Shown piece by piece: positions 41,804-59,560 of a stretch of 64,000 nt of DNA. Made by a program: the position numbers and the translations under genes. The stretch comes from Zootoca vivipara. Lineage: Eukaryota. The stretch's first letter is position 1, and the number at the start of each line of letters is the position of its first letter. Location of the stretch: contig NC_083288.1 in the NCBI RefSeq assembly GCF_963506605.1, forward strand, positions 28,210,001 through 28,274,000, read 5' to 3'. Under the pieces are notes generated by a model. That model saw nothing but the letters and a program-made list of their open reading frames with translations, was not told the origin of the DNA and made no database searches.

Positions 41804-41870
41804 ATGAACTCCATCATGGCATTCCTCTTGCTTACCTGTGGTCTCTTACTATTGTTGACTGAAGCTGTGG
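41804..41870 (+). CDS. FN2-domain secreted protein A (ELSPBP1/BSP-like), exon 1: signal peptide
   Basis: MNSIMAFLLLTCGLLLLLTEAV, then a phase-1 donor G|gtaag; TATA-like ttaaaaa about 48 nt upstream. Confidence 0.85.
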
Positions 41871-42344
41871 GTAAGAAATATTCCATGAATTGTTTCTGAT
41901 TCATCTTAACGAGGCTAGTGTATCATTGATCTCTGCTTTCAAAGGATCTCTGACAGCTAGCCATCACTTGCATAAACCTCGGTTTAGCTATGGTCCTGTC
42001 TTAGTGCGGAAAAGATGACTTACAGTCTGTCCACCCATCAGTAAGTCCCACTGAGTTAATGAGTTTACCAGTGCTATTCTTTCTAGAAAAAGAGGTGCTG
42101 GAACTCAACATGAACAGCTCCCTTGTTCTGTTATAATGCCAATGACACCTACCTAAGAGGTGGTGGAACTGAGTTCTAGAGAGTTCTGGCTGATAAAACA
42201 ACCCAGGTAAGTGTGCACAGGATTCCAGCCTTCATAGAGGTTCTTAAACTAAAGGCCAGGCATGTATAACTAAGGGTAGACTGAAATCCCTTCCCCTTAA
42301 AAACTGCCACATCCTTCCCTTGCAAAAATGGGTCATGGTTTTCT

Positions 42345-42466
42345 GCTGCTTTTAGGAGACATCTGAAGGCAGCGTGTTTTGGGAAGTTTTTAATGTTTGA
42401 TGTTTTAGTATGTGATGTGAGCCACTCAGAGTGGCTGGAGAAACCCAGCCAGATGGATGAGGTATG

Positions 42467-42508
<42 letters not shown>
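42345..42508 (-). mobile_element. L2 3'-end-like fragment with (ATA)n in intron 1; also at 57750-57914
   Basis: Matches the 3' UTR of the L2 at 17775-17912; shared by both duplicates. It may be in the + orientation like that copy. Confidence 0.55.
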
Positions 42509-43128
42509 GGCTCACCCATACTTACCTTTGCTCCACATTTCTAGGCACAGGTCTGGGCTTTCCAGGTCCACATCTGACTGCTTGTTTTTGGACTTGGCAT
42601 CCCTGAAAACCCACTCTTTACCGCTGAATTGGACCAAATGGCAATCCATGGAAAACCCAAATTGCCATTTGTTCCGTTTAAATGGTAAAGATTGGGTTTT
42701 CCTGGGAAACTGGTGGGCAAAATAAATAAAAAATAAGCACTCAGACATGGACTGAGAAAGCATGGCTACTGGTCCCAAGTGCCTCTACCACAGCCCAGGT
42801 TGGGTGGGATGCTCCAGTGACTACATATGGTACCAGTCTTTGGCGCACTGGGGAGGGGGGAATGCCAGCCCACCGCAGGAGACAGCTTGAGAAGTAGTGG
42901 TTTGCTCTGTATCCACTCGTTGCTAGTTTTTGAAGCCACATTCACATGGTATTAGCGAAAGTTTGGTGTGTGATTTTCTTAAACCAGCTTCAATTCGACT
43001 AGAAAAGTGAATGCTGAGTAAGTGGAAATTTAGACATCTGTCACACATGCATGGATGATAACTACACTGTTTCCAGTTAATGAATTGCAGTTCTTATTCT
43101 TACACTTTGTCCCGTGTTTCCATTTCAG

Positions 43129-43281
43129 TGGGTGCTTCCTGTAAATTCCCATTTACTTACAGGGGTAAATCCTATTCCGCGTGCACCATGGATCATTATG
43201 ATAAGCTGTGGTGTAGCACAAAAGTTGGATCTGACACAGATGAACTCATCCAATCTCAATGGAAAACATGTGACCTTAAAG
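43129..43281 (+). CDS. FN2 protein A, exon 2: first FN2 domain
   Basis: ttcag| acceptor; CKFPFTY..Y..CT...LWCST...WKTC; phase 1-1, 153 nt; donor G|gtgacc. Confidence 0.9.
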
Positions 43282-44449
43282 GTGACCTGTATTTTCTTCT
43301 CTTTCTGGTTTCCTATGTCACACATATGCATAGCCATTTTACTGAAATAAAGTAAACAGATCCTCCTCATGAACTTTAAAGCTAGATGTGGGTTTTCCAT
43401 AGGCATCTGATTGGACATCGTTGAAACAAAATATTGGATTAGATGGGCCTTTGGTCTGATGCAGCAGAACTCTTTCTGTGCTCTTAAAGTGGTTTGGGAC
43501 TAGCATCAGTAGCTTGTATACATCTTCCTCATGCCTGAACTATTACAAATCTCCTTCCAAGGATCAGATAAAAGTTGCTTCAAGCAACAAGATCTCTGAA
43601 GAAATGAAACATATCACCAGTATGTTTATTTGAAAATATGGTTCAAACTATGTACCTAAGAGGCGCTTTTGTACAAATATTTCCTACTAATAATTGATAA
43701 AGATTGCATAGACCATAAAAGTCACATGTCATCTTTTCTAATATTAGTAATATTACATTAGCATAAAGGCCAGCTATCCTCATGTCTTGTTTTATACTTA
43801 GTATAACTGAATTCATTCACTTTATCTTTATTTATACCTTCTTGTTTCTTTAAAATTATTGTCAATTGAGCAATTGTCACTTGTTCTCACAGGCTCCTGA
43901 CCAATTCTTTATTTTTTTATGTTAAAAATAAACTTTATTAGAATTCAAATTAAAATACATTCACAAACACACTAAAGGAATGATAACATATGAAACGAAA
44001 TAATAATATAGAAATAATAACATACAAAATCATTAATGATAATAATAATAATGTAACATAATATAATGCAAATAATAATAATTACAATAAACATAATCTT
44101 AAAGAAAATCATAAAGAAAACTAATGACAAACAAAATCATACATCATACATTCATTCATACCCAAAATCAAAATACATTTCAGCTATATTCTTAGCTTCC
44201 TTTATATAATCATTTCGTTTAAAATTAAGATACACTCCCCCTGTCCCCCCCCTTTCCAACTTCCAGTCTTTCCTATATGACCAATTCTTTCGTCCTTGGT
44301 TTGTAGCTATCTTTCTAAACCTTTGCAAAGGAGATCCCTGGCAAGGTATATATATATGTGACATGTTCACCATTTTGCTTTATTTCTTGTATTTTGTGAT
44401 CATCGCTATTATGTTTCAATGCATATAATCTCACTCTGTTTGGGTCTAG

Positions 44450-44614
44450 AGTATGGAGGTAATGATGGTGAACGACCCTGTGTGTTCCCCTTTGTGTACA
44501 AGGGCCAAACCTTTGATAACTGCACCAAACAAGATGCGACGGCAGGGGACTTCTGGTGTGCGACAACAGAGAACTATGACAAAGACGGGAAATGGAGCTA
44601 CTGTGCTGATACCG
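44450..44614 (+). CDS. FN2 protein A, exon 3: second FN2 domain
   Basis: ctag| acceptor; EYGGN..PCVFPFVY...CT...WCATTENYDKDGKWSYCADT; phase 1-1, 165 nt; donor G|gtgag. Resembles, from recall, the EYGGN...KWSFCADT domain of mammalian ELSPBP1. Confidence 0.92.
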
Positions 44615-57162: not shown

Positions 57163-57190
57163 AGTACCCGCCTCATCCCTTAGAGAAGAG

Positions 57191-57257
57191 ATGGGCTCCA
57201 TCATGGCATTCCTCTTGCTCACTTGTGGTCTCTTACTATTGTTGACTGAAGCTGTCG
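57191..57257 (+). CDS. FN2-domain secreted protein B, exon 1: signal peptide
   Basis: MGSIMAFLLLTCGLLLLLTEAV, then a phase-1 donor G|gtaag. Confidence 0.85.
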
Positions 57258-57862
57258 GTAAGAAATATTCCATGAATTCTTTCCGATTCATCTTAACGAG
57301 CCTAGTGGATATCTGCTTTCAAAGGATCTCTTACAGCTAGCCATCACTTGCATAAACTTCTGTTTAGCTATGGTCCTGTCTTAGTGGGGAAAAGATGACT
57401 TACAGTCTGTCCACCCATCAGTAAGTCCCACTGAGTTAATGGGTTTACCAGTGCTATTTTTTCCAGAAAAAGAGGTGCTGGAACTCAACATGAACAGCTC
57501 CCTTGTTCTGTTATAATGGCAATGGCACCTACCTGAGAGGTGCTGGAAGTGAGTTCTGGAGAGTTCCAGCTGAAAAAAACAACCCTGGGCCTTACTCCCA
57601 GGTAAGTGTGCACAGGATTGCAGCCTTCACAGAGGTTCTATCTCCCTTAAACTAAACCTCAGGCATGTATAACTAAGGGTAGACTGAAATTCCTTCCCCT
57701 TAAAACTGCCACATCCTTCACATGCAAAAATGGGTCATGGTTTTCTGCTGCTTTTAGGAGACATCTGAAGGCAGCGTGTTTAGGTAAGTTATTAATGTTT
57801 GATGTTTTAGTATGTGATGTGAGCCACCCAGAGTGGCTGGGGAAACCCAGCCGGATGGGTGA

Positions 57863-57916
<54 letters not shown>

Positions 57917-58473
57917 CCACTCCTTACCGCTGAATTGGACCAAATGGCAATCCATGGAAAACCCAAATTGCCATTCAATCTGATTCAGTGGTAAAGATTG
58001 GGTTTTGCTTAGAAACTGGTGGGCAAAATAAATTAAAGAATAAGCACTCAGACATGGACTGAGAAAGCATGGCTGCTGGTTACAAGTGCCTCTACCACAG
58101 CCCAGGTTGGGTGGGATGCTCCAGTGACTACATACGGTACCAGTCTGTGGCACACTGGGGAGGGAGGAATGCCAACTCACCACAGGAGACAGATTGAGAA
58201 GCAGTGGCTTGCTCTGTATCAACTGCTCGTTTGCTGCTAGTTTTTGAAGCCACATTCACATGGTATCAGCCACGATCCATATTGATGCTGTTGTTTCTGC
58301 TGTTTGGTGTGTGTTTTTCTTAAACCAGCTTCAATTCAACTAGAAAACTGAATGCTGAGTAAGTGGAAATTGAGACAGCTGTCGCACATGCATGGATGAT
58401 AACCACACTGTTTCCAGTTTCCAATTAATTGCAGTTCTTATTCTTACACCTTTGTCCCCCGTTTCCATTTCAG

Positions 58474-58620
58474 TTGGTGCTCCCTGTATTTTCCCATTTA
58501 TTTACAAGAATAAATCCTATTCCTCGTGCACCAAGGTTAAACATCATTCAATATGGTGTGCCATATCACTTCGCCCTGGCACAAAAATCATGAAAAGCTG
58601 GAAAAATTGTGAAACTAAAG
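58474..58620 (+). CDS. FN2 protein B, exon 2: first FN2 domain
   Basis: CIFPFIY..Y..CT...IWCA...WKNC; 147 nt, phase 1-1; splice sites intact. Confidence 0.9.
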
Positions 58621-59395
58621 GTGACCTGTATTTTCTTCTCTTTCTGGTTTCCTATGTCATACATATGCATAGCCATTTTACTGGAATAAAGTAAACAAAT
58701 CCTCCTTATGAACATTAAAGCTAGATGTGGGTTTTCCAAAGGCATCTGACTGGACATTGTGGAAACAAACTGTTGGATTAGATGGGCCTTTGGTCTGGTC
58801 TGATGTAGCAGAACTCTTTCTGTGCTCTTAATGAGCTTTGGGACTAATGAGCTTGTATTGATCTTCCTTATGCCCGAACTATTACAAATCTCCTTCCAAG
58901 GATCAAATAAAAGTTGCTTCAAGCAACAAGATCTCTCAAGAAATTAAACACATCACCAGTATGTGAATTTGTAAATCTGGTTCAAACTATGTACCTAAGA
59001 GGCACTTTTGTACAAATATTTCCTACTAATAATTGATAAAGATTGCATAGACCATAAAAGTCACATGTCATCTTTTCTAATATTACTAATATTACATTAG
59101 CATAAAGGCCAGCTATCCTCATGTCTTGTTTTATACCTAGTATAACTGAATCTTTATTTATAGTTTCTTGTTTCTTTAACATTATTGTCAATTGAGCTAT
59201 TGTCACTTGCTCTCACAGGCTCCTGACCAATTCTTTTGTCCTTGGTTTGTAGCTTTCTTTCTAAGCCTTTGCAAAGGAGATCCCCAGCAAGGTTTATATA
59301 TATGAGACTTGTTCACCCTTTTGGTTTATTTTTTGTATGTTGTGATCATCGCTAGTATGTTTCAATGTATATAATCTCACTCTGTTTGGGCCTAG

Positions 59396-59560
59396 AGAAT
59401 GGAGGTAATGCTAATGGGCGATCCTGTGTGTTCCCCTTTGTGTACAAGGGCCAAACTTTCAATACCTGCACCCAGCAAGGTGCACAGAGACAGGACTACT
59501 GGTGTGCGACAACATGGAACTATGACCAGGACAGGTTATGGAGCTACTGTGCTGATACCG
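59396..59560 (+). CDS. FN2 protein B, exon 3: second FN2 domain (terminal exon probably outside the window)
   Basis: ENGGN..SCVFPFVY...WCATTWNYDQDRLWSYCADT; 165 nt, phase 1-1. Confidence 0.92.

Follow-up and report, generated by a model that had tools for sequence, protein, structure and literature searches.

Two tandem genes, A and B, in a 64,000-nucleotide window of the Zootoca vivipara genome (assembly GCF_963506605.1, contig NC_083288.1, here C13, positions 28,210,001 to 28,274,000 of the forward strand) encode small predicted secreted proteins with two FN2 domains, and belong to a family of 25 genes that is very probably under positive selection. Mature-protein exons of this family outpace the introns between them, and the ratio of nonsynonymous to synonymous divergence (dN/dS, omega) exceeds 1. 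This accelerated evolution is well controlled and larger than first described: a first-pass annotation, made from the letters of the window alone, had recognised a tandem pair, where the chromosome carries 25 family genes in three clusters.

Each gene consists of a signal-peptide exon (exon 1), two exons with one FN2 domain each (exons 2 and 3) and a short tail exon (exon 4). Over gap-free aligned columns, A and B are 92.8% identical in intron 1 (1154 columns) and 93.1% in intron 2 (770 columns), with 92.6% upstream, 92.5% in exon 1 and 90-91% downstream, whereas identity falls to 72.5% in exon 2 (142 columns) and 82.4% in exon 3 (165 columns), bearing out the near-identical introns and hyper-divergent FN2 exons annotated at first pass. 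At the protein level, the two genes share 42% of residues in exon 2 and 70% in exon 3. Nonsynonymous sites differ between the two genes more than intron sites do (Fisher p=1e-17 for exon 2 and 1e-4 for exon 3), with dN 0.49 and dS 0.21 in exon 2 and dN 0.20 and dS 0.22 in exon 3. Synonymous-only differences at four-fold and two-fold sites number 3, 0 and 3 in exons 1, 2 and 3, compared with 3, 1 and 3 in the first-pass count.

A genome search returned 113 FN2-like matches, mostly on C13, and about 1.06 Mb around such matches was then examined for the signal exon, which is present, near-identical, 25 times. Five of the 25 genes lie at 27.36-27.48 Mb, four (genes A, B, C and D) at 28.25-28.31 Mb, and 16 at 31.30-31.78 Mb. 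Exons 2 and 3 are duplicated in three genes of the 27.36-27.48 Mb group, giving 28 exon-2/exon-3 units. The reading frame is open through to the stop in 22 of the 25 genes; the exceptions are gene F01, where the acceptor of exon 2 is broken, F12, which lacks 2 bases, and F10, whose last exon was not found beside a run of N. In two gene pairs both FN2 exons are identical, which could reflect very recent copying or duplication in the assembly. Within the 31 Mb group, each of the 16 genes has gained a Cys in domain 1, and a Cys is also present in the tail of F01 and of the 14 genes whose own frame reaches it; these residues likely form a fifth disulphide. Database models P0009 and P0010 are identical to two of the four-exon family models, and models for gene A and its paralogues are automatically named ELSPBP1-like. 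Automatic annotation also fuses many family genes into chimeric models (P0002, P0003, P0022), which hide the family.

Selection was assessed over the 28 units with purpose-written MG94-type codon models, using both an intron tree and an exon tree. Across the 378 pairs, which are not independent, the mean intron distance is 0.084, with mean dN 0.39 and dS 0.24 in exon 2 and dN 0.21 and dS 0.24 in exon 3. Plain M1a/M2a comparisons gave likelihood ratio test (LRT) values of 105-189 for exon 2 and 51-80 for exon 3, which were set aside because such values are inflated if site rates vary. When rate variation is included in the null, exon 2 retains an LRT of 44-73 with omega 4.3-4.7 and exon 3 an LRT of 15-25 with omega 3.2-4.0, on either tree and with or without multi-base changes. 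The evidence for selection is thus strong for exon 2 and moderate for exon 3, and the earlier view of small secreted FN2 proteins that diversify fast within a restricted lineage is upheld at the family level. Amino-acid change in loops chosen by position exceeds the intron rate by factors of 5.7-8.1 in exon 2 and 3.8-5.3 in exon 3; omega is 2.6-3.4 in exon 2, loops and remainder alike, and 2.3-2.8 in the loops of exon 3. The fast sites lie in the loop before the WC motif, in the new domain-1 loop described below, and at the residue preceding the last Cys, a position described as pocket rim in the relevant section of PMC4557993.

The pattern might instead be mostly non-selective, arising through gene conversion that homogenised the introns of older copies or through hypermutable exons under relaxed constraint, an explanation that appears distinctly improbable. 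Several results lend it weight and count against selection. The synonymous rate of the exons is 1.1-2.4 times the intron rate, and four-fold sites differ by 0.095 in exon 2 and 0.134 in exon 3 versus 0.077 in introns. The exon and intron trees disagree in places, and multi-base changes strongly improve the fit in exon 2. In simulation without selection, all 12 replicates with varying site rates produced false LRTs, of 35-108, and the 13 replicates in which only the tree was wrong reached at most 8.2, this simulation covering the plain site test, with the rate-variation LRTs themselves outside it. Outside its loops, exon 3 has an omega of only 0.8-1.0, and in the A/B pair alone the excess of nonsynonymous over synonymous change is not significant (p=0.24), so that a dN/dS above 1 in the FN2 exons is shown by the family and not by the pair. 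Because synonymous sites outpace introns, some intron homogenisation or tree mismatch is likely, and the earlier caveat about gene conversion was to that extent justified. It cannot explain the amino-acid excess, however, nor is it the whole effect, because A and B differ at only 2 of 22 four-fold sites (sites conditioned on unchanged codon starts), where a dS matching the dN of exon 2 would need a difference of about 37% (binomial p=0.004). Omega above 1 also persists with rate variation, and the invariant Cys, Pro, Phe and Trp columns, together with the 22 open frames, are unlike relaxed evolution at such divergence.

Further controls come from the genome itself. Companion FN2 exons of similar make-up, co-duplicated in the 31 Mb blocks, match introns in conservation, being 97.6%, 96.3%, 99.1% and 92.0% identical in four classes; in the last class, a microsatellite terminates two copies. 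The genes adjoining them are 80-85% identical in exon 2, 85-87% in exon 3 and 94-95% in introns. A separate two-FN2 gene at C13:27453208-27456238 (L063) evolves slowly, is conserved with Podarcis, Lacerta, Anolis and turtles, and keeps 32-34 of 42 core residues per domain (76-81%) relative to Anolis. Domain 1 of the Podarcis protein described below as the likely parent is identical at 47-50 of 50 residues among three species. Such orphan FN2 exons, several of them damaged by stops, frameshifts or microsatellites, accompany the genes in the duplicated blocks at 31.30-31.78 Mb (L071-L121), and automatic annotation splices them into chimeric proteins, one of which (P0002) is fused to an olfactory receptor.

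The features of genes A and B, in window coordinates unless otherwise given, are as follows.

41194..46529, + strand, duplicated block around gene A, aligning with 56569-63278 around gene B (non-coding parts 90-93% identical)
41754..41762, + strand, putative TATA-like box (variant) of gene A, seen in the sequence at the same place in paralogues
41804..41870, + strand, gene A exon 1, start codon and hydrophobic signal peptide, phase-1 donor
43129..43281, + strand, gene A exon 2, FN2 domain 1, hypervariable, with remodelled loop after WC (Pfam fn2 E=5e-12)
44450..44614, + strand, gene A exon 3, linker and FN2 domain 2 with canonical aromatic pocket (Pfam fn2 E=5e-19)
49194..49234, + strand, coding part of gene A exon 4, 13-residue tail and stop (49232-49234), by paralogue conservation
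49471..49476, + strand, gene A polyadenylation signal AATAAA, flanking 120 nt kept in paralogues
57154..57161, + strand, putative TATA box of gene B, seen in the sequence
57191..57257, + strand, gene B exon 1, signal peptide
58474..58620, + strand, gene B exon 2, FN2 domain 1 (Pfam fn2 E=3e-11)
59396..59560, + strand, gene B exon 3, linker and FN2 domain 2 (Pfam fn2 E=2e-17)
C13:28276844, 2.8 kb past the window end, gene B exon 4, by paralogue conservation

Many paralogues of gene A have a canonical TATA at the position matching its variant box. The six exons annotated at first pass were all found at the coordinates given for them; their ends are AG/GT, their junctions are in phase 1 and the frame is open. 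All four FN2 exons pass the Pfam fn2 (PF00040) cut-off of 22.2 bits, with scores of 43.6-68.5 bits. The three-exon gene model was incomplete, as exon 3 of both genes ends in a phase-1 donor and the stop sits in a fourth exon, conserved with its acceptor in 24 of the 25 family genes. Reading through exon 3 into the intron, which offers an open 17-codon tail, was considered as the gene end and rejected in favour of this fourth exon; splicing is the better model because of the conserved exon, the polyadenylation signal and a matching database tail, namely that of P0008, which ends in the same 13 residues as gene A exon 4 (this protein is labelled Zootoca vivipara ELSPBP1-like and is 98% identical to gene A exon 3). 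A read-through product may occur as a minor form. The predicted products of A and B have 141 and 150 residues, with mature net charges of -5 and +9. An insertion of about 1.6 kb in the third intron of gene B (window 60277-61886) is absent from gene A, and a GC-rich minisatellite-like repeat lies between the genes (window 51700-52380), with a similar one after the last gene at C13:31.78 Mb.

The A-D cluster is located among olfactory receptor genes, an array that extends on both of its sides; five intact olfactory receptor frames were identified at window 4067-5173 (+), 7266-8249 (-), 15056-16018 (+), 21490-22452 (+) and 30780-31760 (+), in addition to a long open frame of a LINE endonuclease/reverse transcriptase at 23249-26362 (+), with similar copies nearby. 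Elsewhere on C13, large multi-FN2 genes at 27300175-27345000 (L048-L052) hold 26 FN2 exons with many recent internal repeats, and their orthologous Podarcis models have 700-1424 residues. Exon frames recognised by eye as vomeronasal type-2 receptor-like stand just past the largest cluster, at 31794000-31803000 (L120-L121).

Horse ELSPBP1 finds its best matches in the genome in the C13 clusters. LIG1 (C13:30.946 Mb) and a SULT2-type gene (30.99 Mb) lie 0.3-0.36 Mb from the 31.3 Mb cluster, the largest of the three, and 2.7 Mb from A and B; the account of mammalian synteny in PMC4557993 places LIG1 and SULT2 at the flanks of ELSPBP1/BSPH. The best matches, and the neighbours of the largest cluster, mark the family as ELSPBP1-like. 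It is nearer to ELSPBP1 than to the FN2 domains of MMP2, MMP9, FN1 and mannose receptors: 14 other FN2 domains of the genome group apart in a clade of moderate support (95/76, short of the tool's star threshold), in domain trees with few columns and many open forks, one of which skipped domain 2 in its ELSPBP1 numbering. No Otx/CRX match was found on C13, a simple EF-hand pattern, sought for CABP5 in the ELSPBP1 context, gave nothing in the two flanks scanned, and a UPAR/LY6 search gave no match, from which no conclusion is drawn.

The first-pass relation to ELSPBP1 is supported by these results, and the proposed BSP membership is not, as consensus blocks, linker and domain pairing all differ. 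Like ELSPBP1, the lizard proteins are secreted and FN2-only, and they share the pairing and EYGGN linker of ELSPBP1 domains 2-3; unlike it, they have two domains (four by internal duplication) in place of four distinct ones, 25 copies, a remodelled domain-1 loop and strong positive selection. ELSPBP1 proper would be expected as four distinct FN2 domains in a one-to-one orthologue, where two domains and many copies were found; other multi-FN2 genes are present at the same locus. With BSP, BSPH1, BSPH2 and PDC-109 the family has in common a signal peptide followed by two FN2 domains, a similar size, the pocket Trp and first Tyr, and tandem expansion, as in ungulates. However, the lizard pair is most like domains 2-3 of ELSPBP1, and PDC-109 aligns to its domains 1-2; lizard domain 1 is without the block IV Tyr; and by the consensus blocks set out in PMC4557993, BSPs have WCSL (block III) and a short linker V, in contrast to the lizard WC[APS]T (27 of 28) and long EYGGN-type linker. 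The two-domain form would, on this comparison, have arisen separately from the BSPs.

All four Cys of each domain and the Trp of the WC motif are invariant in both domains in all 28 units, so that the intact cysteines noted at first pass extend to the whole family. Taking pocket residue roles as given in the corresponding part of PMC4557993, a mapping made from sequence alone, the domain 2 pocket is well kept (Y/F 28/28, W 28/28, Y/F 28/28, W 27/28). Domain 1 keeps the floor Trp in 28 of 28 units and the first Tyr in 24, and at about the second Tyr position has V in 27 and L in one; a longer variable loop without Tyr replaces the usual TTxNYD loop. Structure prediction reached a mean predicted local distance difference test score (pLDDT) of 41.9 alone and 48.3 with 16 rows, too poor for a fold search.

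The likely parent of the family is a Podarcis protein of 295 residues with five FN2 domains, which matches the Zootoca genes in its signal peptide, in the type of loop in domain 1 and at the start of the tail. Its look-up cluster contains four records from three species, with one annotated gene per species among the matches listed. The 28 Zootoca units are 38-65% identical to its domain 1, and no intact five-domain copy was found in the approximately 1.06 Mb of Zootoca regions examined. By inference from sequence, the family consists of truncated copies of this parent, from which three FN2 exons were lost before amplification; the parent is five-domain and slow-evolving, in contrast to the two-domain, 25-fold amplified and fast Zootoca genes. 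A Lacerta agilis model also has family-type domains, so truncation and amplification may predate Zootoca. Other squamate multi-FN2 proteins include ESP-Cyl-1 and ESP-Vkom1, which derive from oral-gland cDNAs; over 267 residues, ESP-Cyl-1, from Cylindrophis, shows 71% identity with the Podarcis parent. Hargreaves et al. (10.1101/006031) mention, in the portion of their text on such genes, a reptile-specific expansion.

Family relatives appear to be transcribed, highly in one sample. Run X1 consists of contigs under a different organism label, with an RNA origin presumed, and tissue labels are absent from all runs. Its family-type pieces are mostly 90-95% alike, with depths of 1143-3982 at the 3′ end and in introns 1 and 3, compared with 15.6 upstream and 28 in intron 2. 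In one X1 contig (depth 120, shorter side 27 letters), unplaced letters separate the end of exon 1 from the start of exon 3, as expected of a spliced relative with a divergent exon 2.

The best explanation offered is that the five-FN2 parent gene lost its last three FN2 exons and was amplified, that A and B are two of the resulting 25 tandem copies, each with a signal peptide, two FN2 domains and a short tail, and that their variable loops diverged under positive selection. Domain 2, with its kept pocket aromatics, would anchor the protein on choline phospholipid or another shared ligand, and domain 1, without one pocket Tyr and with most selected sites in loops, would give each copy a different binding or display face. 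The secreted products may coat sperm in the male tract, with sperm competition or male-female interplay as the possible driver of domain-1 divergence. The lacertid epididymal proteins known to have been characterised are lipocalins. Sperm coating is the best guess because of the kinship, the kept pocket and an epididymal duct protein that binds lizard sperm (PMC4577573, where the pertinent text does not identify it as FN2); such a male-tract role is held tentatively, at somewhat less than an even chance. Various observations speak against it. The lost Tyr means that domain 1 possibly binds no choline. In three raw RNA runs, of which about 6 in 100 were read, the bin covering most of exon 2 of A had a depth of 0-0.7 and the exons of A drew almost no reads; the only family reads, in one run, were of paralogue type and came from the 3′ untranslated region (UTR) (29 of 31 share an indel). 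No androgen-response element within two mismatches was found in the 650 nt upstream of six genes, an uninformative absence where only about 0.1 would be expected. ESP-Cyl-1 and ESP-Vkom1, in turn, are drawn from the venom-gland literature (10.1101/006031, in its section on these sequences).

This last point bears on a different and somewhat unlikely account, in which the same genes under the same selection produce oral- or skin-gland secretions (saliva, femoral or cloacal scent) that would either convey scent information or act as binders of lipids, microbes or prey molecules. The closeness of ESP-Cyl-1 to the Podarcis parent agrees with it, and the X1 depth resembles that of a dedicated gland. 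On the other hand, that run has a presumed RNA origin and no tissue label, Hargreaves et al. (10.1101/006031) see, in the part of their study on ESP sequences, no evidence that these are venom components, and the main text of the Lacerta agilis femoral-gland proteome paper (PMC9000839) nowhere uses the terms epididymal, sperm or fibronectin. A defensive role in blood, mucosa or oviduct, with diversification driven by an arms race with pathogens, parasites or toxins, also seems quite improbable. The charge difference between A and B would suit varied targets, one general RNA run contains a low level of 3′ UTR reads, and the habu small serum proteins, an array of the PSP94 family, show accelerated evolution (PMC6609765); the mammalian relatives, however, are male-tract proteins (PMC4557993). 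In a further reading, which is unlikely, a constant membrane-anchoring domain and a hypervariable recognition domain would form a 25-member identity code on the sperm surface or in glands that evolved apart from mammalian BSPs, at venom-gene speed, and serves mate or population recognition in the common-lizard lineage.

Venom PLA2 and three-finger toxin genes combine conserved introns with fast mature-protein exons. Snake venom genes and the habu small serum proteins resemble the lizard family as tandem secreted genes with conserved introns and signal exons and fast mature exons, but they differ in fold, and Zootoca is a non-venomous lacertid with no toxin activity indicated. Both the family type and the evolutionary pattern are already known. 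A description of this expansion was not found in the titles and abstract openings of the papers that the literature searches listed, and for ELSPBP1 in lizards no paper was listed; nor is it mentioned in the main text of the paper on the Zootoca genome, of one on the lizard uterus or of a review of venom.

Very few secreted reproductive proteins of reptiles have been characterised, and this family is a ready test of sexual-selection-driven diversification of lizard sperm-surface proteins, with built-in controls in the slow single-copy Podarcis parent, the slow sister gene nearby and the neutral companion exons. The FN2 fold is usable as a hypervariable binding scaffold, and the exon-faster-than-intron pattern of venom genes occurs in a non-venomous lizard.

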